Of a stretch of DNA of 64,000 nucleotides, positions 21,001-31,245 are shown piece after piece. The translations under genes were made by a program, and so were the position numbers. Location of the stretch: positions 2,819-66,818 of the forward strand of contig JALFGP010000037.1 in assembly GCA_022777205.1 (NCBI GenBank). Direction: 5' to 3'. The notes below the pieces were generated by a model. It was not told the DNA's origin and ran no database searches. It saw nothing but the letters and a program-made list of their open reading frames with translations. This stretch comes from Rikenellaceae bacterium. GTDB lineage: Bacteria; Bacteroidota; Bacteroidia; Bacteroidales; UBA932. Numbering within the stretch: the stretch's first letter is position 1; each line of letters opens with the position of its first letter.

Positions 21001-22533
21001 GTCAGAAGTGAGGTCTCCGGCTGCTGCAATACCCTGATAATCATATCCCAGCAGGTTCAATCTCCGGATTTTCAGAGAGTCGATATGGGCGCTCATCGAT
21101 GATTTGCCGTCCACGGGGATGACAAGTGATGCGGAGGTTTCCATCGTGACCGGTCCCACTGCCTGTATTCCGGCGATTTTGCCTGCATCAAGATCTTTTG
21201 TGCGTATGAGTCCCTTGAGCCGGATTGGTCTGTCCGGGTCTATGAGGTGGTTGAACTTGAGATCTGCCTCCATATTGCCGTTGAGGGAACTGATGCGGGG
21301 CATTACCCTGAGGTGGTTGAGTCTTCCTTCGACATTGCAGTCCATCATAAATCGCTGACCTTTAGCGAATTTGCGGAAGTCTATGCGTTCCTCAGTCCAG
21401 GCATTTACCAGTCGGTCCACACCCCGGCTGCTGAACATACAGGCGCTCAGCCTTGCATCGATGCGCATATCGTAAATGTCAGGTATATTGGATATGCGGC
21501 CGTTCACCGTGCCTGCAAAACTGCCGTCGTCCATATTGACCCTCACGTTTTTGAGCTGCATATTGCTCACCGGGCCGCTCACCTGACCGCTCACTCGGGC
21601 CCTCAATCCGGTGTTTTCGAGGGTGGGAGCGAAGAAGGTGAGGGTCTTGAAATCCAGAAAACTGTTTTCTATCCTGCCTTCCAGATGTACCTGGTTGAGA
21701 AAATCTGCGAAGTCGGGGGCTCCTGCATATCGCATCGCATAGAAGGGGAGTGACAGGTCGGAATAATCGTCCCGGATCTTGAGATTGCGTATGATGACAT
21801 TGCCGTTGCCTGCCCTTGCATCACCGCTGATGTGACGGCAGTTGAATCCGCTCCTTTCCCTGAAAGTCATTTCCAGCAGGTTTCCTCCTATGACCTTGCC
21901 CCTCATTTTCAGGTTCTTGCCCTTGAGGTTGATGTCCTTGACTTCGAGGTCGGTCCAATCTATGCCCACCTGTTCTCCGTTTTTGCGGTAGGTGCCTTCA
22001 GGGACTATCCTTTCAGGACCATAGTTGTACATACTGTAGCCCATATTCTCGATGCGCACGTCCCCGATGGAGAATATTTCCTTGTCCGGCACGGCTGTGG
22101 TGTCTTCCTTTGCCTCAAGTCCGAACATCCTTCCGAGGTTCACCTGTTCGCCTTCGAGTACGAGATTCATCTGTGCGTTGCGTATGCGGGCCTGGGAGAA
22201 ATGCAGGCCTTCGCCTCCCAAAAGACTTGAAAGACTGAATTTTACGCTGATGTTGCCGGCACGGAAAAGAGTGTCTATTGGAACGTCTCCTGGCTCGGGG
22301 GCTATGGGAGCGGTGTCGATTACGGCCAAATCGTCGATTATCAGCTGCGTGAAAGGCTTGAAATGGATATGGCTGAATGTGATGTCGGCGTTGGTGGCAT
22401 CCTTGAGTTTTGCCACGGCTTTTTCTGCAATGAAAGTCTGCACCGCCGGGGCTTGTATGGCTATGAATACAGCGGCTATGATTGCTGCTGCGATCACCAC
22501 CAGAATTTTCAATATGTGCAGAAACTTTTTCAT
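18034..22533 (-). CDS. tamB: Translocation and assembly module TamB (AsmA-like/DUF490)
   Basis: About 1500 aa, N-terminal TM anchor, beta-taco repeats, and a C-terminal LFNNRVIVNGN..GDIEIEIKL..G...Y..EF region. Divergent from tsaD. Confidence 0.85.
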   Translation of the reverse strand: MKKFLHILKILVVIAAAIIAAVFIAIQAPAVQTFIAEKAVAKLKDATNADITFSHIHFKPFTQLIIDDLAVIDTAPIAPEPGDVPIDTLFRAGNISVKFSLSSLLGGEGLHFSQARIRNAQMNLVLEGEQVNLGRMFGLEAKEDTTAVPDKEIFSIGDVRIENMGYSMYNYGPERIVPEGTYRKNGEQVGIDWTDLEVKDINLKGKNLKMRGKVIGGNLLEMTFRERSGFNCRHISGDARAGNGNVIIRNLKIRDDYSDLSLPFYAMRYAGAPDFADFLNQVHLEGRIENSFLDFKTLTFFAPTLENTGLRARVSGQVSGPVSNMQLKNVRVNMDDGSFAGTVNGRISNIPDIYDMRIDARLSACMFSSRGVDRLVNAWTEERIDFRKFAKGQRFMMDCNVEGRLNHLRVMPRISSLNGNMEADLKFNHLIDPDRPIRLKGLIRTKDLDAGKIAGIQAVGPVTMETSASLVIPVDGKSSMSAHIDSLKIRRLNLLGYDYQGIAAAGDLTSDYFDGKVICNDPNLNFLFQGLFTLVNDKSKSVNRIWKFYANIGHADLHALKLDKRPVSRLRLRTAANFTTSENRDVNGKISIDGVTLENSLGVHNIGNVDITADLKDNISRMKFKSAFLDGSFAGSASPLVFLDDLMSVTVDRDLPVLGNGSGKIFSGNRYEVNFDFSDSRDLLSFLIPGLYIADKSSVRLRLDAKGLATARVKSPRIAYKDKFIKDMDASFSNSEGSLSGSIFGNLVNIGPKMSIDEARLSLYADDDKFGIGFNYGESVEDGNDGEILTLGTLGRDKASDLSLQLRILPSGMRINSADWDIHEAELSIADGHIRIDGFGFSNGDQGISINGCIDSNGGDSLRVDMERFGIDLLNPLLPDNMQLSGSATGSALLVSPIASPDLNLDIVCDSAAIGGVNLGLLTARCHFDKTFKRFEAQINNLYEGQLRLDGHAFYTPSSQMLEADARFNGFNLGIAKPFVGEIFNEIGGELSGSLRYDSTPGRYRIASENLRLDNGLLSLIFTNVPYTVNGPLEIDTEGAHFKGISLKDRENGTGTLDGSILFGGFTRPELDLRATVHNMECLNVTQKESPYFYGHIYGSGSASIRGPFSALVLDIDASTEKTGDLHIPIPNTSTAGNNNLLRFKGIEVPVIVDPYEEMMKKIKDIESRTADFAINLRVNATPGVTAYIEIDKASGNVLSARGSGMVELNSSATRFDINGDYNISSGNYKFVALGIASRDFEIKEGSSIKFNGDIMDSNLNIDAVYKTKASLSTLIADTTSVNTRRNVECGIQITDKLSNPRIGFSIDVPDIDPTVKSKVESALSTEDKIQKQFLSLIISNAFLPDEQSGIFNTSTILASNLSEVMSGQLNNILQRLNIPLDLGLNYQPNDRGNDVFDVAVSTQLFNNRVIVNGNIGNRQYKTSGSNTDIVGDIEIEIKLDRKGSWRLNLFSHSADQYTNYLDNSQRNGLGMAYQVEFNGISDEDRKDLQTISIEEALK

Positions 22534-22696
22534 CAATGCCCCGATGCCGGCCGTTCTTTTATTTCCATAAATCTTACAAATTTATAAAATTGCCCCGAGA
22601 TAAAGCCAAGTATTGCATTTTTTCTGCTAATTTTGTGCGATTTTCGCGGTCTTTAGGCATAAGCCGTGGATGCAATACATATAAACCCGATACCAA

Positions 22697-23725
22697 ATGA
22701 GCGATATAATACTCGGCATAGAATCTTCCTGCGACGACACCTCCGCTGCCATAATCCGCGACGGTGTGCTGCTCTCCAATGTAATTGCCAGCCAGGATGT
22801 CCACAAAGCCTACGGCGGCGTAATACCGGAATTGGCCTCCAGGGCGCATCAGCAGAACATTGTGCCTGTGGTGAGTGAGGCAATCCATCGCGCAGGCATA
22901 TCCAAGGAAGACATCACTGCCATAGCCTTCACCAGAGGACCCGGCCTTTTGGGCTCTCTGCTTGTGGGCACTTCTTTTGCCAAGACTCTTGCCATATCTC
23001 TGAATGTCCCTCTGATTGAAGTGAACCATCTTCAGGGGCATATTCTCGCCAATTTCGTAAAGCAGCCGGACAAGGATGTGCCTATGCCTTCATTCCCATA
23101 TCTTTGCCTCTTGGTTTCAGGTGGCAACTCCCAGATAGTCAGGGTGGATGACCCTTTGCATTACGAAATTTTGGGCCGTACAATAGACGATGCTGTAGGA
23201 GAAGCCTTCGACAAATGTTCCAAGATGATGGGTCTGGGCTATCCTGGAGGTCCTGTCATTGACAGACTGGCAAAAGAGGGCAATCCGGACCGCTTCAAAT
23301 TTTCCAAGCCCCATATCCCCGGCCTGGACTACAGTTTCAGCGGCATCAAGACTTCTTTGCTTTATTTTGTGAGGGATCAGATGGCCTTGAACCCCGGTTT
23401 TATGGAAGAGAACAAGGCGGACATCTGTGCATCTTTCCAGAAGACTCTCATTGACATCCTCATGGACAAACTCATTAAAGCGGTGAAACAGACGGGCATA
23501 ACACAAGTTACCGCCGGCGGAGGAGTCTCGGCCAACAGCGGTCTGAGAAATCGTCTCACAGAAGAAGGCCGCAAAAGGGGCTGGACGGTCTATCTGCCTG
23601 AATTCAAGTTCACCACAGACAATGCCGCGATGATTGCCATTGCCGGCTATTACCACTATCTCAACGGCGAAAGAACCTCTCTGGACGTGGCTCCGCTGTC
23701 CAGAATGGAAGCTTTTGCAAAATAA
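22697..23725 (+). CDS. tsaD: tRNA t6A37 N6-threonylcarbamoyltransferase TsaD
   Basis: LGIESSCDDT, GGVIPELASRAH, VNHLQGH, DDAVGEAFDK and TDNAAMIA motifs. Confidence 0.97.
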   Translation: MSDIILGIESSCDDTSAAIIRDGVLLSNVIASQDVHKAYGGVIPELASRAHQQNIVPVVSEAIHRAGISKEDITAIAFTRGPGLLGSLLVGTSFAKTLAISLNVPLIEVNHLQGHILANFVKQPDKDVPMPSFPYLCLLVSGGNSQIVRVDDPLHYEILGRTIDDAVGEAFDKCSKMMGLGYPGGPVIDRLAKEGNPDRFKFSKPHIPGLDYSFSGIKTSLLYFVRDQMALNPGFMEENKADICASFQKTLIDILMDKLIKAVKQTGITQVTAGGGVSANSGLRNRLTEEGRKRGWTVYLPEFKFTTDNAAMIAIAGYYHYLNGERTSLDVAPLSRMEAFAK

Positions 23726-23731
23726 CTGCTT

Positions 23732-25321
23732 ATGAAGGAAATAGAACTTACCTGCAAAATAGGACGTGAAATCCCGGAAGCGGAACTCAAGGCTGCTGCC
23801 GCAAAGGCCCTTGGCGTGGCACCCAAGGCAGTGGGGGAGTGCCGTCTGATGCGTCGTTCGGTGGATGCCAGGACGGATGTGCTGTGGAGAATGCGCTACC
23901 AGGTCTGCAAGATTGGCGAAACCCTTGATTCATACAGACTTGCTCCATATAAGGATGTCCATTCATCGCCTTCGGTAATCGTTGTGGGGGCAGGTCCTGC
24001 GGGTATGTTTGCTGCTCTGAAACTCCTGGCTCTGGGTTTGAAACCTGTGGTTCTGGAAAGGGGAAAGGATGTGCACGCAAGGAAGGTTGATGTGGCCCGT
24101 CTGTCGGACAAGGGAATTGTGAACCCGGACAGCAATTACTGCTTCGGGGAAGGAGGAGCCGGCACATTCTCGGACGGAAAGCTATACACCCGTTCCACAA
24201 AGAGGGGAGACATAAGGGAAGTCCTGCACCAGCTGGTCCTTTTCGGAGCTTCGGAGTCCATTCTGACCGATGCCCACCCGCATATAGGCAGCGACCGGCT
24301 CCCGCAGATTGTGGAAAACATACGCAAGTGCATAGTAGAGCACGGAGGGGAGTATCATTTCAATTCAAGAGTTTGTGACATAGTGCCTTGCGCTGACGGC
24401 TCTTATGTTGTCAAGGTCGAGGACGGTTCCGGTGATGAAGCTGTCCGAGCCGAATACAGGGCCGGGAAGGTGATTCTTGCAACAGGCCATTCCGCCCGTG
24501 ACATCTACGAACTCTTCGCACGCAGGGGCTGGGCTCTGGAGGCCAAGGGATTTGCTCTCGGAGTGAGGGTGGAACATCCCCAGTCGCTGATTAACAGGAT
24601 TCAATATCACGGTAAGTATCAGCCTTTTATGCCCACCGCTGAATATTCTTTCGTGCAGCAGATTGAGGGACGCGGAGTCTTCTCGTTCTGTATGTGTCCC
24701 GGTGGAATTCTTGTGCCGTCTGCGACTGGTGAAGGGGAGTGCGTGCTGAACGGTATGTCCAATTCAATGAGAAATTCCAAGTGGGCGAATTCGGGAGTGG
24801 TGGTGAGCGTGGAGCCGGAGGATGTGCAGGGCTATGAGTCCTATGGTCCGCTTTCAGTGATGCATTTCCAGATGGATGTGGAACGCCGCCTCTACGATTG
24901 GGTGCAGAAGCATTCACCGCGCAATCCCCTGGCCGCTCCCGGACAGAGAATGATGGATTTCTGCAGGGGCATACAGTCGGCCAACCTTCCGACAAGTTCC
25001 TACCATCCCGGAGTGATTTCCGCCCCTCTGCACGAACTGCTGCCCGAAAATGTAAGACTGCGTCTGAAATACGCATTTCCGGCTGTAGGCAACAAGATGA
25101 GGGGCTATTACACCAACGATGCCCTGCTGCTCGGAGTGGAATCCCGCACCTCCAGCCCCGTCCGCATCCCCCGCGATCCCGAAACAATGTCCCACCCAGA
25201 CCTTCCTGGCCTCTACCCCTGCGGAGAAGGAGCCGGTTACGCAGGCGGGATAGTCTCCAGCGCCCTTGATGGCATCAACTGCGCGGCGGCTTGCTCGGGT
25301 GAAAGTCCATTACCGGCTTGA
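23732..25321 (+). CDS. NAD(P)/FAD-dependent oxidoreductase (COG2509-like)
   Basis: VGAGPAG, GEGGAGTFSDGKL, FCMCPGG, ESRTSSPVRI and GEGAGYAGGI motifs. Confidence 0.88.
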   Translation: MKEIELTCKIGREIPEAELKAAAAKALGVAPKAVGECRLMRRSVDARTDVLWRMRYQVCKIGETLDSYRLAPYKDVHSSPSVIVVGAGPAGMFAALKLLALGLKPVVLERGKDVHARKVDVARLSDKGIVNPDSNYCFGEGGAGTFSDGKLYTRSTKRGDIREVLHQLVLFGASESILTDAHPHIGSDRLPQIVENIRKCIVEHGGEYHFNSRVCDIVPCADGSYVVKVEDGSGDEAVRAEYRAGKVILATGHSARDIYELFARRGWALEAKGFALGVRVEHPQSLINRIQYHGKYQPFMPTAEYSFVQQIEGRGVFSFCMCPGGILVPSATGEGECVLNGMSNSMRNSKWANSGVVVSVEPEDVQGYESYGPLSVMHFQMDVERRLYDWVQKHSPRNPLAAPGQRMMDFCRGIQSANLPTSSYHPGVISAPLHELLPENVRLRLKYAFPAVGNKMRGYYTNDALLLGVESRTSSPVRIPRDPETMSHPDLPGLYPCGEGAGYAGGIVSSALDGINCAAACSGESPLPA

Positions 25322-25368
25322 GGACTCTTCCGGAGCAACTATCATTAACTATTTCTGAACCTGTAAAG

Positions 25369-25440
25369 ATAATTTAAGTCTCGCAAGCCTTTCCAATGGA
25401 CTTTAAATCATATAATTATGACTTGCGAAACTTGATTTAT
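25369..25440. repeat. Imperfect 19-bp inverted repeat at the left edge of the AT-rich island
   Basis: ataatttaagtctcgcaag (25369-25387) and cttgcgaaacttgatttat (25422-25440) match at 16/19 positions, with a 34-nt spacer. Confidence 0.6.
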
Positions 25441-25470
25441 TAACCAATAGCACATGTTCCAAACAATTGG

Positions 25471-26364
25471 TTATTTCCAGAGAGGTTCAGTATCCCAGCC
25501 AGTAGGGAATCCCATAGCCCTCAAATCAATCTGAGGAAACTTGCTAAATAAAGTGTGTAATTTGTTCTTGAAATCATTGCTTGGTGAAATGATATCCAAG
25601 AAGAACTTAATCATACAGATGTTAAAGTAAATTCTGTCTTTTGCTACAGGAATAGTCAACCAAGGACGTGACATCTGTTTCGCATCCGCAGGAATAATCA
25701 AGTTAACCTTGTTCCATACACGCGCGTGATGACAACAAGCATTTCGTGTTAGAGCCAATGTCGTCACCCATGATTCCAAGGCTTGAGGCTGCAGGTGGAA
25801 CTGTCTTGCAATCTGCTTTCTGATTCTTTGGTCTGCCAGATTCTTGTATAACTGTACTGTAGTACCAAAAGGAATAATCTCTGAAATCATCCATGCAGGA
25901 GCATAAGGATCAGAATAGGTGTTCTTAAAATGCTTGATGAAATCTTCGGTAGATTTCTTGTACTCAGCATCGATGAACGAAAACGTCTTTACATACGATA
26001 CATGGTTCCTGAAATGCCTTGAATCTGTCATCCAGAAAATATCTCCGCTCATTCTTGCGGTAACATTGGCAACAGCCTCTCGGAAAGCAATCTCGATCTT
26101 CTCAATCTCATTAAAGAGGAGAACCCTGAGCTTTTTATCGAAACGATAGAGATCCAGTACATTGTCGAAAGTCACACCTGGCTTAAAGATGTGATTGGTC
26201 TTTGGCATTGTTAAGAATGGAAGCATGTAAGCACTCAGACGATAATAACCAATGTTCTGAATGTACGCCTCTGCTCTCTGTTCATCATTGATTACCAGCC
26301 CTCGTGATTTGAGAAGTTGCACGAGATCAAAAGGGGAAGAATATCCTTTTGTAAAAGCAGCCAT
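25471..26364 (-). CDS. abiF: Abi family protein (AbiD/AbiF, Abi_2), HEPN RNase toxin
   Basis: L..RGL.I, IGYYRLSAY, LY.FDKKLR.L, IEKIEIAFR, P.WMISE..FG and HEPN R-x4-H (RNACCH) followed by HARVWN. Start trimmed to MAAFTK at 26364. Confidence 0.9.
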   Translation of the reverse strand: MAAFTKGYSSPFDLVQLLKSRGLVINDEQRAEAYIQNIGYYRLSAYMLPFLTMPKTNHIFKPGVTFDNVLDLYRFDKKLRVLLFNEIEKIEIAFREAVANVTARMSGDIFWMTDSRHFRNHVSYVKTFSFIDAEYKKSTEDFIKHFKNTYSDPYAPAWMISEIIPFGTTVQLYKNLADQRIRKQIARQFHLQPQALESWVTTLALTRNACCHHARVWNKVNLIIPADAKQMSRPWLTIPVAKDRIYFNICMIKFFLDIISPSNDFKNKLHTLFSKFPQIDLRAMGFPTGWDTEPLWK

Positions 26365-26373
26365 AAGTGTTAT

Positions 26374-26428
26374 AAAATAAAAAGCCCCACCTATTTGAGC
26401 ATTGTGAAGAGGCTTGGCGGGAACTAAC
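26374..26428 (-). ncRNA. abiF-type structured RNA (putative RNA antitoxin) in the leader of abiF
   Basis: GUUAGUUCCCGCCAAGCCUCUUCACAAUGCUCAAAUAGGUGGGGCUUUUUAUUUU. Outer stem CCGCC/GGUGG, inner AGC/GCU hairpin, U-tract. Starts right after a consensus promoter. Confidence 0.75.
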
Positions 26429-26432
26429 GATG

Positions 26433-26463
26433 CAAAGGTAGCAATTAATTTCTTATTTGCAAA
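26433..26463 (-). promoter_or_regulatory. Dedicated promoter for the abiF RNA and abiF
   Basis: Minus strand TTTG (26460-26463), a 19-nt spacer, then TACCTTTG (26433-26440). Confidence 0.8.
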
Positions 26464-26640
26464 CATTGTGTAAACATCATAGGCAGATATCTAACCATAA
26501 AACATTATATCATAAGAATTGAAGATTGGTATTATGCATAAAACTATTTCACTACATTTTTAATCATTTCTCGTATTGTATTGTTTTCAAGCCTTATTTT
26601 GTTTAAGTAAGACAGTCTTGTTATTTGTTCCTTCGGAAAG

Positions 26641-26667
26641 AAAAAGCCTCCGGGGAAACCGAAGGCT
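26641..26667 (-). terminator. Intrinsic terminator closing the WYL operon
   Basis: Minus strand agccttcgg-tttc-cccggaggct followed by a T-run. Confidence 0.75.
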
Positions 26668-26713
26668 AAATCTTTTTTAGAGTGCATGTGGCCGTAACCG
26701 CATTTCTTGTCAA

Positions 26714-26905
26714 TCATACGGCACTGTTATAACTTAATCCTCTTCTCTTAGCATATCTTTTCAATCTGGATTGATTGATATTGTAAAGTGACTCTCCAAT
26801 CTCCCACATACGTTGAGCTTCGCTTCCCTGAAGGTAAGCAAAGTCCTCATCCTTCTGTTTAATGCAGTTCAATACTGCCGCAGACTTCCAATCATTGCAC
26901 TGCTC
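26714..26905 (-). pseudogene. Start-less 63-codon remnant resembling the C-terminus of DUF6577/AbiEi-like antitoxins
   Basis: Hand-translated frame EQCNDWKSAAVLNCIKQKDEDFAYLQGSEAQRMWEIGESLYNINQSRLKRYAKRRGLSYNSAV*, preceded by an in-frame TGA. The YLQGSE..Y.IN.SRL.RYA.RR pattern is recalled from that family. Confidence 0.4.
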
Positions 26906-26928
26906 TCAGACTAGATCGATGTGTTCAT

Positions 26929-27492
26929 TCAGACCAATGATTTAATGCTAATATTTATGCATTTTGTGTCTCCAAACTGAATAGTTTCTCCTACAGTGGA
27001 ATGGATATGGCCGAAAAGATGGTACTTAGGCTTAGCCTTCATAATGAAGTTTAGTATGTTGGTCGAACCCATATTTTCATCAAGAATCCCCAAAGGTGGA
27101 TTATGGGTCACAACGATGTCTATATCATCAGGTATATCCTCATCTGATACTGAAGAGTTGTCAGAAATAGAGGCTATAATCATACCATCACAATCCTCGA
27201 TAGCGTCCTCAAGAACCGTAATACCTTTCGCTGTCATTCTACGGATAATTATATGTGCCTGACCTAACTCAAAGGATAACTCATGATTACCTGGTACGAA
27301 TATTTTCCACTTGCATGGTAGAGCAGAGAACCATTCTATGAAATCGTCATACTCATCTCCCACAAGATTGTCTTCTACTGCATCGCCGGCACAAATCACT
27401 ATATCAACGTTCTCCGGCACCTGCAGTTCTCTATGTCTGCCATGGGTGTCGGAGAATGCGAAGATATGTTTATTGTTTAGATTCAGAATCAC
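26929..27492 (-). CDS. Calcineurin-like metallophosphoesterase (MPPED/Rv0805-like)
   Basis: SDTHG, AGD, GNHE, THNPP and GHIH metal motifs. GTG start at 27492 chosen to avoid overlapping the upstream gene; the start is uncertain. Confidence 0.85.
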   Translation of the reverse strand: MILNLNNKHIFAFSDTHGRHRELQVPENVDIVICAGDAVEDNLVGDEYDDFIEWFSALPCKWKIFVPGNHELSFELGQAHIIIRRMTAKGITVLEDAIEDCDGMIIASISDNSSVSDEDIPDDIDIVVTHNPPLGILDENMGSTNILNFIMKAKPKYHLFGHIHSTVGETIQFGDTKCINISIKSLV

Positions 27493-27505
27493 AATTATAC
27501 TTAAG

Positions 27506-28147
27506 TTATAATAGGGACTTCCATCTGTCAGAACCCTCTGAATATGTCTCCCCGTTAATAATATGACAAACATATTTTACCTTGTTTCTCATACAAATCC
27601 TATTGGATGCTATTTGCATCAATGTTCTGTTGTTCGCATTGTCGCCTAACAGATGAACAAAATATGCATCATAATTAGATCCGTCTTTATTCAGTTTAAG
27701 AAAGTCTTTTGCAAACTCCTTTACGGGAGACATACCAGCCTTAAATTCAATACAGCAAATCCGTTCACCTTTGTCATTATAAACGACCAAGTCAAATTTT
27801 CCAGAGACACCTTTGTTCTTCTCGGCTATTTGGGGTTCAATTTCTTGTGAAAAAACATATCTCTTATCTGTTGGAGTCTCAACAGAATAATAGTATGGCC
27901 AGTTCTCCTTCTCACATATTTTATTGAACTGCTCAACAAATGCAAATCTAAGTTCTTGTTCACTTACCCTAGTCTTAGCCTTGCGCTCCATATCATCTTT
28001 ATGCTTAAGGCTGTATCGCGGGAACACAAGACGTGATTCCTTGCATGGATGGAAGCTAATATCTTCTCGATTATTTGAAAAAATAACATCAATGACTTTG
28101 AAAGTCTCATCTAGAATAGATTCGATGTGCTCATTAAATTCACTCAT
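27506..28147 (-). CDS. Uncharacterised protein with a PD-(D/E)xK nuclease-like motif
   Basis: SEQELR ... GKFDLVVY ... CCIEFK ... KDFLKL fits an E..D..ExK catalytic arrangement. Confidence 0.55.
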   Translation of the reverse strand: MSEFNEHIESILDETFKVIDVIFSNNREDISFHPCKESRLVFPRYSLKHKDDMERKAKTRVSEQELRFAFVEQFNKICEKENWPYYYSVETPTDKRYVFSQEIEPQIAEKNKGVSGKFDLVVYNDKGERICCIEFKAGMSPVKEFAKDFLKLNKDGSNYDAYFVHLLGDNANNRTLMQIASNRICMRNKVKYVCHIINGETYSEGSDRWKSLL

Positions 28148-28150
28148 AAT

Positions 28151-29056
28151 TCATTGTTTTTTATATGACACCTGGTCATGTAGTTCAAATTCGAAATTGT
28201 ATTGAGGTTTTGGAAGACCTAAATGCTCAGATTGGTAGTTCATAGCCGCATCAAATAGCCACTTGAAGTCTCCAAAGGAACTAATTTCTGCCAATGTTTC
28301 ATTATACTCTTCCAAAATCTTTGACTGAAACGCATGAATGTTTTGATTTGAAAAATCTGTATCAAAGTTAGGATTAAAAATCAGATAAATAAATCTGACA
28401 TTGGAGTTCGCATGGCTCTCAAGGATGTTGGCACAGATTCCCAAGAAATGACAAATCAATTGTTTTACATCGAAATGAGAAATGTACTTCCCGTTCATAC
28501 TAAATGAACAAGCCATGTAGTCAGGCTCATTCTCAATTGGAGTTTCTTCATACGAGAATCCGGAGTTTACGGATTTTATGTGTTCGTATACATCCTTGTA
28601 CACACGTGAAATCTTCTGATTCAGATGTGTTGAGTATATTTCTCTACACTTTGCTTCAACAAAAACATCTTCCGTTGGACTAGAAAGATAACCATCAAGA
28701 TTCGCTGTGTGGCCGACTCTGGTTGGTAATTGTTTCTCAAAACAGAAACCAGGGACTGATTTGGAGCACTCATATATTAGTCTGCTGGATGAGCCAAAAG
28801 ATGCCATCTTAGGCGGATTCAGGCCCCATCTACCTTGCTTTTCAATGAGTTCTCCTCCATCAGCATCGTTATATTGCGCAAAATGGAGTGGTGACATTGA
28901 ATCAATAAATCGTTTCCAATCATCATTGCTAAGATAATTGTTGTACGGAGATTTGCCGCTGATCTCATAGCCATATCCAACTTTCTTTTGTCCGTCCCTA
29001 ATTGCAAAGTCAAGTGCAGTGGCTTTATCAATGGATGGTTTATATTGTTTTTCCAT
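28151..29056 (-). CDS. Putative restriction endonuclease-fold protein (PGN_0703/REase-ARP-like)
   Basis: ASFGSSS, FEKQLPT, ANLDG, VFVEAKCRE and KQLICH motifs (D..EAK). Confidence 0.6.
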   Translation of the reverse strand: MEKQYKPSIDKATALDFAIRDGQKKVGYGYEISGKSPYNNYLSNDDWKRFIDSMSPLHFAQYNDADGGELIEKQGRWGLNPPKMASFGSSSRLIYECSKSVPGFCFEKQLPTRVGHTANLDGYLSSPTEDVFVEAKCREIYSTHLNQKISRVYKDVYEHIKSVNSGFSYEETPIENEPDYMACSFSMNGKYISHFDVKQLICHFLGICANILESHANSNVRFIYLIFNPNFDTDFSNQNIHAFQSKILEEYNETLAEISSFGDFKWLFDAAMNYQSEHLGLPKPQYNFEFELHDQVSYKKQ

Positions 29057-29059
29057 AGT

Positions 29060-29971
29060 CTATCGGTTAGTGTTATATGTTTCTGACAGGTGATCAACAA
29101 TCTCTCTGAGGGTATTTCTAAGAGATGCCGGTTCCAAAACCTCGACTTCTTTTCCATATGACAACACATCCTGTTTAAAATCGTAGTCAGTGGTAAGGAA
29201 ATATGAGAAGATACTATAATCTTCATGAGTCTCGACCTCCTCTTGGCTTCTGTGCAAAGGGAGTGAACGGAAGTACTTTGTCTGCATTGGGGATACTTTG
29301 AGGAGAACCTTCTCTGGTTTCATATCTGAATATACGCGGACTCCGTAGATATTCCCAAAATATCCATCAGCAGAGAACTCCTTAGGCAAGGTAAAGTCCT
29401 CCGAAGTTATTGTCGCAGTTATCATCCTGTCAAGGGCAAGCATTCTGCATCCGTCTGGATCTCCTTTGTATCCATATAGATACCATCTGCGCTTAAATTC
29501 TTTCAGGAAGTATGGCTCAAATACAAAGTGGTCTTCGTCAGGCTTCCGGTAACTTTGGTAGCGTATTTCCACCTTCTTACCATCGCGAATCGCCTGAATA
29601 ATGATAGACAGAAACTTATCCTTGGAAGGAACTTCATCAAAGAAGATGCGGTCATGTAGACTGGCACCCTCTGCAAGCAGGGAATTAAGGCTCAGTGCAT
29701 TGAGCATCCAGTTACGGATACCACGCCCGTTCATATCCTCTGCGTTTTCAATATAATATGTATTGTCCCTGCGGTCGCATACTATGTCGATTCCGAAGAT
29801 GTCAGCTATCGATGCTATGTGATTAGCAAACGTGCGTGTAGCGAGTTCCTTGCCGTCTTCATTGACGCTGCAATTTATCCATAACTTCTTGATTTCCTTC
29901 AAGGTTAAAGGCCCTCTGCTCTGGAGTGATTCCAGTAGCCAGACGTAAGATTTAAAATAGTTCTTTGCCAT
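29060..29971 (-). CDS. wHTH-WYL domain transcriptional regulator
   Basis: N-terminal HTH (LTLKEI..W..RTF.NHI..I..IFGIDI.C) and WYL/WCX region (FEPYFLKEFKRRWYLYG, LALDRM, YFRSLPLH.SQ, G..VEVLEP..LR). Confidence 0.92.
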   Translation of the reverse strand: MAKNYFKSYVWLLESLQSRGPLTLKEIKKLWINCSVNEDGKELATRTFANHIASIADIFGIDIVCDRRDNTYYIENAEDMNGRGIRNWMLNALSLNSLLAEGASLHDRIFFDEVPSKDKFLSIIIQAIRDGKKVEIRYQSYRKPDEDHFVFEPYFLKEFKRRWYLYGYKGDPDGCRMLALDRMITATITSEDFTLPKEFSADGYFGNIYGVRVYSDMKPEKVLLKVSPMQTKYFRSLPLHRSQEEVETHEDYSIFSYFLTTDYDFKQDVLSYGKEVEVLEPASLRNTLREIVDHLSETYNTNR

Positions 29972-30081
29972 AGTGACAACAAAGTTAGCAAATGCTTCTG
30001 CAAAATTGTGGCATATTAAAAATATTTTACCTCTGCCATTTTCTTGCTGAAGCCCCCGTCATCTTTGCCGAAAAGAAAACA

Positions 30082-31245
30082 ATGAAAGAACAAATCAGAC
30101 AGCGGACCGAAACTGCTAGACAAAGATTAATTAAACAAAGGAGGTTATCACGAATGAAAGATTTTAAGAAATTCAGAGAGCATGTCTATGACTTGGCTAA
30201 ACGCAAATTTGGAGAGATTCCTAAAGACGTAGAACACAGGCTTATTGCTGAAACCGATGCTATCAAGGAATATGGAAGAGGTGAGATGCTTCTTACTATG
30301 TGGCGTCTGGTGGATGAGTTAAGGAAGCACGACATTAATATCCGTCTCACTCTGGGCCAAGGTTATAATGTGTCATTGGTCTGCTATCTCCTTGGAATCT
30401 CGTCATTTAACCCGATTGATCATCCGAAGCTCAAGACAGAATCGTATGTAATCAGTACGTTCAAGTTATCATCAGAGATAGTGTTCAAAATTGACAAGGA
30501 TCAGTCAGCAGTCATTGATGGTTTCCTTAACTCTCTACGATATGAAGTCGCAAGAATGGATGTTTCAGGAGACTTTCATTCAAGGAAAATCAAGGCTTGT
30601 TGTGAGGGAAATTCCGATTTTGCACTCGAATTTAAGTATGAACCGAATGTCGGACGTATCAGAATCTTTGGTGAACTGATCGGATGGGATAAATTTGAAA
30701 AGATTCCTACTGATGATCTGGAGACAATGAATCTCATCAATGATATCGACATATATGGTGCAATGACCTCGAGTCTAGCTCCCATCACCATTGAAGCAAT
30801 CAGAGAAATCAATCCGTCGAATGTGGAAAAACTGGCAGATGCCTTGTCCTTCACTTCTGAAAGAAAGTATAGTCATCTGCTGAAGTATCTGGAGAATAGA
30901 GATACAGGAAACAGAGTATTTACCGGACATCCACAGATAGATGAAATTCTCAGTCCCACTCATGGGATCTTACTCGACACAAGTCAGCTTGGACAGATTT
31001 TTAAATTGCCTCTTCGCAGTGAATTAGGGGAGAATGCCTATAAAGTTATAAGGGGAAAGCATAGATCATTAATGGCATCTCCAATAGTGGACAGATGCGA
31101 TATTTATGTAAAAGCATATGATCTCTATCGGTCGGCATATGTCAAGGTGCACTATCCTGAAATCTTCAAGAAAGTTATAGAATCAAATAGCAATCTCTTA
31201 TCGGTATCGATGCATTTCCTGATGGACATAGAGAGGAGTCTATAA
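30082..31245 (+). CDS. Miniature DNA polymerase III alpha (DnaE)-like protein, probably catalytically inactive
   Basis: Ordered DnaE palm/fingers motifs: HRL..E...I, SLVCYLLGIS..NP, IPTDD.ET, I.EINPSN.E.LAD, H..I.EIL.PTHGILL, Y.SAYVKVHYPE.F. The PDxDxD and KxDxLG positions are degenerate. Alternative start MKDFKK at 30154. Confidence 0.65.
   Translation: MKEQIRQRTETARQRLIKQRRLSRMKDFKKFREHVYDLAKRKFGEIPKDVEHRLIAETDAIKEYGRGEMLLTMWRLVDELRKHDINIRLTLGQGYNVSLVCYLLGISSFNPIDHPKLKTESYVISTFKLSSEIVFKIDKDQSAVIDGFLNSLRYEVARMDVSGDFHSRKIKACCEGNSDFALEFKYEPNVGRIRIFGELIGWDKFEKIPTDDLETMNLINDIDIYGAMTSSLAPITIEAIREINPSNVEKLADALSFTSERKYSHLLKYLENRDTGNRVFTGHPQIDEILSPTHGILLDTSQLGQIFKLPLRSELGENAYKVIRGKHRSLMASPIVDRCDIYVKAYDLYRSAYVKVHYPEIFKKVIESNSNLLSVSMHFLMDIERSL

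Follow-up and report, generated by a model that had tools for sequence, protein, structure and literature searches.

Does the abiF gene at positions 25471 to 26364 stand alone, or does it form part of a complete module with a promoter and an RNA antitoxin of its own? The window examined here is the whole 64,000-nucleotide stretch of contig JALFGP010000037.1 from a Rikenellaceae bacterium, and on its minus strand a promoter, an RNA, a U-tract and the abiF open reading frame follow one another in this order, all within 25471 to 26472. We read this segment, with a probability of about 85%, as a complete single-copy AbiF-AbiFr module, a putative abortive-infection system of type III-like build in which a HEPN toxin is held by an RNA antitoxin. 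This reading rests on matches to Rfam and to the Abi_2 and AbiD models, homology to PDB entry 8VZ6, a constant layout among relatives and compensatory changes in the RNA, together with the limits of the homologous block, its patchy spread, a drop in GC content, a neighboring PADLOC candidate and bench work on relatives. As a canonical representative of the AbiF system, which was described in 2025 in bacteria of this same order, the module is already known in kind. The original prediction consisted of a promoter, a structured RNA, an Abi_2 gene and an open reading frame reading through the first two, and all four were recovered where it had placed them.

The abiF gene (minus strand; 25471 to 26364, stop codon included) encodes a 297-amino-acid HEPN ribonuclease of the Abi_2/AbiD-F type, the predicted toxin. 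Its product matched Abi_2 (PF07751) with 185.3 bits (cut-off, 25.6) over profile positions 2 to 184 of 184, and the PADLOC AbiD model with 230.7 bits. Residues 3 to 297 aligned without gaps to residues 6 to 300 of the 300 in 8VZ6_A (E value, 1.4e-112), and 163 of the 295 aligned positions were identical (55%). The HEPN catalytic motif R207-N-A-C-C-H212 (25729 to 25746, minus strand) is intact, as had been claimed for an R-x4-H in this protein, and its R207 and H212 (RNACCH) align with the catalytic R210 and H215 (RNSCCH) of 8VZ6; a PbAbiF variant carrying both R210A and H215A is reported inactive (PMC12373285, citing Zilberzwige-Tal 2025). Judged by its homologues, the gene starts at ATG 26364 and not at ATG 26466, from which a mechanical list of open reading frames draws a 331-amino-acid frame running through both promoter and RNA; the warning that this long frame hides the two was justified. 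In the annotation, the abiF start should be moved to 26364, an RNA gene (26372 to 26428) and the promoter should be added, and the locus should be labeled as a defense/toxin-antitoxin module.

An Rfam scan of the whole window gave two matches above the curated thresholds, one tRNA and the abiF RNA motif (RF03085). The latter lies at 26385 to 26421 on the minus strand (52.7 bits; gathering score, 37; E value, 6e-7; model positions 1 to 37 of 37), so that the check with the Rfam covariance model, which the original prediction had proposed, was positive. The 2017 paper cited as the source of the motif does not name abiF in its main text. Sequence and model agree on an outer stem, CCCGCC/GGUGGG (26416 to 26421 with 26386 to 26391), in which the anticipated CCGCC/GGUGG is contained, and on the anticipated inner stem AGC/GCU (26412 to 26414 with 26398 to 26400). 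An 11-nt loop (26401 to 26411) lies between AGC and GCU, and a 3' bulge, CAAAUA (26392 to 26397), between GCU and GGUGGG. On the 5' side stands a predicted single-stranded leader, GUUAGUU (26422 to 26428), preceded by GCAUC after the −7 box; its last base, U26422, pairs with G26385 and provides a seventh closing pair. On the 3' side an invariant C (26384; sequence and alignment) is followed by the expected U-tract, UUUUUAUUUU (26374 to 26383). The motif ends 20 nt 5' of ATG 26364 on the same strand, with 9 nt between U-tract and ATG. From promoter geometry we infer a transcription start at about 26428, and the U-tract may serve as a terminator tail or a processing site and also as an A/U-rich leader of abiF. 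The description of the module as single-copy was borne out by searches that found no second abiF motif on either strand of 25000 to 27000 at an E value of ≤10 and no further abiF copy in the whole 2.39-Mb assembly at an E value of ≤1e-3.

The stability of the RNA fold resembles that of shuffled sequence (z-scores, +0.46 and −0.27), and the minimum-free-energy fold recovered the outer stem alone, a result counted against the preferred reading. Since the thermodynamics are unremarkable, the proposed fold is carried by the covariance model and by covariation. The terminator scan did not detect the hairpin before the U-tract because its loop exceeds 8 nt (the stem encloses 29 nt); stem and U-tract are not a canonical intrinsic terminator, and this was likewise counted against the preferred reading.

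Relatives were searched for with one genome per prokaryotic species, and the best 80 of 473 were taken, nearly all of them Bacteroidales (Prevotella, Segatella, Parabacteroides, Muribaculaceae and Paludibacteraceae). Layout was counted in the 79 loci of these best 80 that had enough upstream DNA. The succession of promoter box, RNA, U-tract and ATG was constant in 79 of 79, as was a U-rich stretch (at least six of eight positions) between motif and ATG. Forty-five distinct sequences were aligned without gaps (A1) and scored on the Rfam structure plus the one extra closing pair. Paired cells amounted to 95.8% (85.4% in shuffles), and sliding the partners gave at most 47%; 7 of the 10 base pairs had changed on both sides, and any of the five measures was reached by 0 of 500 shuffles. 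In the inner helix, two of the three pairs are invariant, and this helix is thus weakly tested by covariation. At the extra pair (26422 with 26385), A-U, U-G, U-A and C-G all occur, and no sequence breaks it. Within the leader, A26425 is invariant and G26424 is at least 90% conserved; C in column 50 (after the stem) and T in columns 54 and 55 (the U-tract) are invariant, and the nucleotides of loop and bulge hardly vary. Conservation reaches beyond the 37-nt Rfam motif to a 5' UAG leader, the seventh closing pair, the invariant C and the U-tract, which probably puts the length of the functional RNA at about 50 to 55 nt, in keeping with the length originally proposed. The 79 loci (from the best 80 of 473) could be useful for refining the Rfam model, as their conserved RNA is longer than the 37-nt motif.

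Variant RNAs occur among the relatives. In three loci from Prevotella/Xylanibacter (L043, at 2887 to 2990, L052 and L078), the terminal loop of the RNA holds an insertion of approximately 28 nt with two extra mini-hairpins (GUCGA..UCGGC-like and CUUGC-N4-GCAAG) in an otherwise intact motif; by their sequences, these are loop-expansion variants of the predicted antitoxin RNA. A Prevotellaceae locus (L077, 2836 to 2985) has an insertion of approximately 85 nt in the 3' bulge and a degenerate 3' stem half, and may represent a disrupted or remodeled antitoxin 5' of an intact abiF.

The pattern TTTG-N19-TAnnTTTG, which we take to be the −33/−7 promoter type of Bacteroidota treated in the Bacteroides promoter literature, is matched exactly at 26433 to 26463 on the minus strand (TTTG-N19-TAccTTTG), where a consensus promoter had been foreseen. 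Its −33 element, TTTG, occupies 26460 to 26463 and its −7 element, TAccTTTG, 26433 to 26440 (both minus strand, exact). The window contains four matches to the pattern, with 0.11 expected from shuffles. Among the 79 related loci (best 80 of 473), TAnnTTTG precedes the RNA stem in all 79, at a distance of 11 to 12 nt except for one locus with 15 nt, and the −33 TTTG is present in 60. A sigma-70 scan did not detect the promoter at 26433 to 26463, as would follow from its −33/−7 type, and the sigma-70 promoter/terminator scan gave no second promoter-like site between RNA and ATG.

The closest bench-tested system is that of PbAbiF. Entry 8VZ6 is described as a homodimer of this Prevotellaceae protein with two copies of its ncRNA (PMC12373285, PMC12737573). 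The study (Zilberzwige-Tal et al., Cell 2025) is cited here as described in PMC12373285, PMC12737573 and PMC13064643, in which PbAbiF and its upstream ncRNA figure as an RNA toxin-antitoxin system with kinship to the ancestor of Cas13. In the accounts of PMC12737573 and PMC13064643, each monomer of the homodimer binds one RNA, which blocks the HEPN site; the former also reports that PbAbiF processes its own ncRNA and that C32 and U38 in a single-stranded bulge of PbAbiFr inhibit the RNase. Homology thus lends support to a single-copy pair of type III-like RNA antitoxin and HEPN toxin (RF03085 match; PbAbiF 8VZ6 homologue), and its placement in a Cas13-ancestor class accords with these descriptions. 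A Cas13 combines two HEPN domains in one protein with an adjacent CRISPR array. The window protein has 297 amino acids and one HEPN-type domain (a single Abi_2 match), and the locus has neither a repeat array nor a second RNA copy; its place is in the proposed ancestor class, not among the Cas13 systems.

The window module and PbAbiF come from the same order and share protein length (297 and 300 amino acids), the RN(A/S)CCH motif and a single abiF-motif RNA directly upstream. A locus whose protein is 93% identical to 8VZ6 (L072) has the same promoter box, 7-nt leader, stem, bulge and U-tract as the window. The RNAs differ in the leader (GUUAGUU in the window, ACUAGAA in the PbAbiF clade), in the sixth stem pair (closed C-G in the window, a C/U mismatch in the clade) and in the extra closing pair (U-G in the window, A-U in the clade), and on this comparison the window RNA is a sister subclass to that of the PbAbiF clade. 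PbAbiFr numbering was derived by setting the RNA start at the purine 5 to 6 nt after the −7 box (alignment column 6) and was not taken from the structure file. With this derived numbering, position 32 in L072-type loci is the C of the CAAAU bulge and position 38 the U of the basal C/U mismatch, a placement that agrees with the inhibitory C32 and U38 in a single-stranded bulge as given in PMC12737573. In the window, the equivalent of position 32 is likewise C, and the equivalent of U38 is G26391, paired with C26416; the pair in alignment column 43 is C-G in 26 of the 45 sequences and an unpaired C/U mismatch in 19. As the U38 equivalent is a paired G, the exact inhibitory contacts of the window RNA may differ from those of PbAbiFr. 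The division of the RNAs into subclasses, at a position described as inhibitory in PbAbiFr, could be useful for work on the specificity with which AbiF and RNA pair.

The second bench-tested relative is the AbiF of Clostridioides difficile, for which toxicity, neutralization in cis and in trans, co-purification and premature termination are reported, and for which deletion of the leader raised abiF mRNA 17-fold by relieving premature termination (PMC12373285). AbiFCd-RCd22, from the C. difficile prophage phi027, shares with the window an Abi_2 HEPN toxin and an upstream RNA with the RF03085 motif; in C. difficile, a single promoter drives both RNA and gene, a termination signal precedes the open reading frame, and the RNA serves as an antitoxin of the type III-like kind (PMC12373285). 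RCd22 has a Rho-independent terminator apart from its two abiF motifs (PMC12373285), whereas the window has one motif, and a stem that abuts the U-tract. AbiFCd is prophage-borne and about 30% identical to the window AbiF, which is chromosomal and lies in a defense island. Identity to the bench-tested proteins (55% for PbAbiF and about 30% for the C. difficile phage copies) was counted against the preferred reading. Lactococcal AbiD, AbiD1 and AbiF belong to the same family, likewise rely on conserved sequence upstream of the gene and act against phages; they are encoded on plasmids of Firmicutes, and phage triggers and host factors (such as RecA) are established there (PMC13064643). ToxIN and AbiQ also pair an RNase toxin with a bound, cis-encoded small RNA that silences it and is made in excess by means of a terminator before the toxin gene. 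Their toxin fold is unrelated, however, and their antitoxins are tandem-repeat arrays cut by the toxin, whereas the window RNA is a single copy free of tandem repeats.

The limits of the module were set by comparison with other loci. The nearest (L007; Bacteroidales metagenome-assembled genome of another species; protein identity, 98%) is homologous to window positions 22472 to 26472, with nothing further upstream, where its neighbors are unrelated to the WYL/metallophosphoesterase operon of the window. More distant loci (L008, L009 and L012) have only a block of approximately 25463 to 26449 in common with the window. The module was originally called self-contained, and the homology does extend from the promoter (inside it or just 5' of it) to the stop codon. 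When window positions 25322 to 26472 were compared with 2893 to 4040 of L007, nucleotide identity was 99.1% for promoter and RNA and 98.8% for abiF; in the adjacent genes, identity was 83.5% (FAD-oxidoreductase gene) and 89.3% (tsaD). A module that is about 99% identical beside genes that are 83.5 to 89.3% identical suggests that the module was recently exchanged between species at one and the same position in the chromosome, or that it underwent a sweep. At 25400, GC content drops from about 0.53 to about 0.40, and it remains low as far as about 31500. No abiF orthologue was found in the 18 other searched species of the genus, 2 of which have paralogues of 35 to 37% identity, and a sample of 201 genomes from across the order contained the abiF RNA motif in 10 of them. 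The protein family is represented in 434 plasmid and 69 phage records; the phage matches include C. difficile phiC2 and CD2301, at 30% identity.

The abiF and FAD-oxidoreductase genes converge, and the intergenic DNA that separates them contains a 19-nt inverted repeat (25369 to 25387 and 25422 to 25440; 84% complementary, with 34 nt between the arms), which may be a bidirectional terminator. It was also considered as a second flanking AbiF element and rejected; it is absent from other AbiF loci, the homology to which stops at the stop codon.

The genome has five Abi_2 matches in all. A second AbiF module (L003, contig C11) comprises an RNA at 1347 to 1383 and a coding sequence at 1402 to 2295 (ATG at 1402), the protein of which is 39% identical. 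Its RNA is abiF-like but divergent (26.9 bits; Rfam cut-off, 37), with compensatory changes in both stems (UCCGCC/GGCGGA and CGC/GCG), and the module is furnished with a TAtaTTTG box of its own and a U-tract, 19 nt 5' of the ATG. Toxin and RNA of L003 may form an orthogonal pair. A third full-length Abi_2 gene (L004, contig C1, 1393 to 2313; 306 amino acids; 29% identity; RNACAH) has a promoter box immediately 5' of its ATG, and no abiF-like RNA was found at this locus at an E value of ≤1. The remaining two are partial matches on contigs C72 (L005) and C78 (L006).

If the window module works as its relatives do, most transcripts would end or be cut at the U-tract, as in PbAbiF and AbiFCd, and this termination or processing before the open reading frame would leave the RNA in excess; read-through would supply the AbiF mRNA. 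AbiF would dimerize through its HEPN domain, each monomer would bind one folded RNA, and the bulge of that RNA would fill the R-x4-H active site and keep the RNase silent. Binding and neutralization of the window AbiF by AbiFr are inferred by analogy from the 55% identity to the 8VZ6 protein and from the near-invariant loop and bulge, and AbiF alone would be toxic as an RNase, given its homology to PbAbiF and AbiFCd (PMC12373285, PMC12737573). A drop in RNA supply or a disturbance of the complex, by phage infection or loss of the locus, would set AbiF free to cut cellular single-stranded RNA and so cause growth arrest, with abortive infection or addiction as the outcome. On the preferred reading, the module is accessory and sits where a low-GC defense island begins.

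How far do other explanations account for the same locus? The RNA could be a cis-acting leader only, an attenuator that limits abiF transcription and is no trans-acting, protein-binding antitoxin. Such a leader would suit the invariant C and U-tract that follow the closing stem in 79 of 79 loci (best 80 of 473), as well as the 17-fold rise in abiF mRNA after leader deletion in C. difficile (PMC12373285), yet we hold it to be improbable. In both bench-tested relatives, as they are described in PMC12373285 and for 8VZ6, the RNA binds and neutralizes the protein in trans; moreover, the near-invariant loop and bulge nucleotides would be needless in a plain terminator, and the hairpin alone is a poor one. 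A combined version, rather unlikely and offered tentatively, is that the antitoxin fold is itself the attenuator: the 7-bp closing stem, together with the invariant C and the U-tract, would act as a weak terminator, efficient only while AbiF clamps the nascent RNA. Were this true, free AbiF would keep transcription from running on into abiF (autoregulation), more toxin would be made when phage caused the complex to be lost and, as a corollary, the L003 AbiF/RNA pair would be orthogonal, with no cross-neutralization.

The long frame from ATG 26466 raises another alternative, a real product of 331 amino acids of which the supposed RNA would be N-terminal coding sequence. That frame is open in both the window and L007, but the solved homologue and all relatives (best 80 of 473) start at the position of its M35, and 36 of 78 relatives (best 80 of 473) have an in-frame stop between the 5' stem of the RNA and the ATG, which marks the upstream extension as non-coding. 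The upstream stretch varies by paired compensation and not by codon position, and ATG 26466 sits 5' of the −33 element. On the homologue starts and in-frame stops, the 331-amino-acid frame was rejected as a real gene, and its probability is close to nil. A very improbable case is that of an inactive relic, intact by chance and either unexpressed or no longer toxic. Toxin genes are often silenced; here, however, the frame is full length with its catalytic R and H in place, the promoter is an exact consensus match, and promoter, RNA and coding sequence are 99% identical to L007 beside neighboring core genes at 84 to 89%, a contrast that argues for recent spread or selection and not for decay. 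The complete AbiF-AbiFr module is therefore retained as the preferred reading.

Two further observations concern the low-GC surroundings. Upstream of abiF, a minus-strand operon (26929 to 29971) encodes a WYL-WCX regulator, two proteins without a family match and a metallophosphoesterase, the last of which matches the PADLOC candidate defense family PDC-S10 with 138.8 bits; this operon is missing from the corresponding site of L007 and is a candidate for a separate defense system. Divergent from the WYL gene and within the same low-GC island, a 417-amino-acid open reading frame (29992 to 31245, plus strand) gave weak matches to the DNA polymerase III alpha NTPase (34.8 bits) and finger (24.1 bits) domains.
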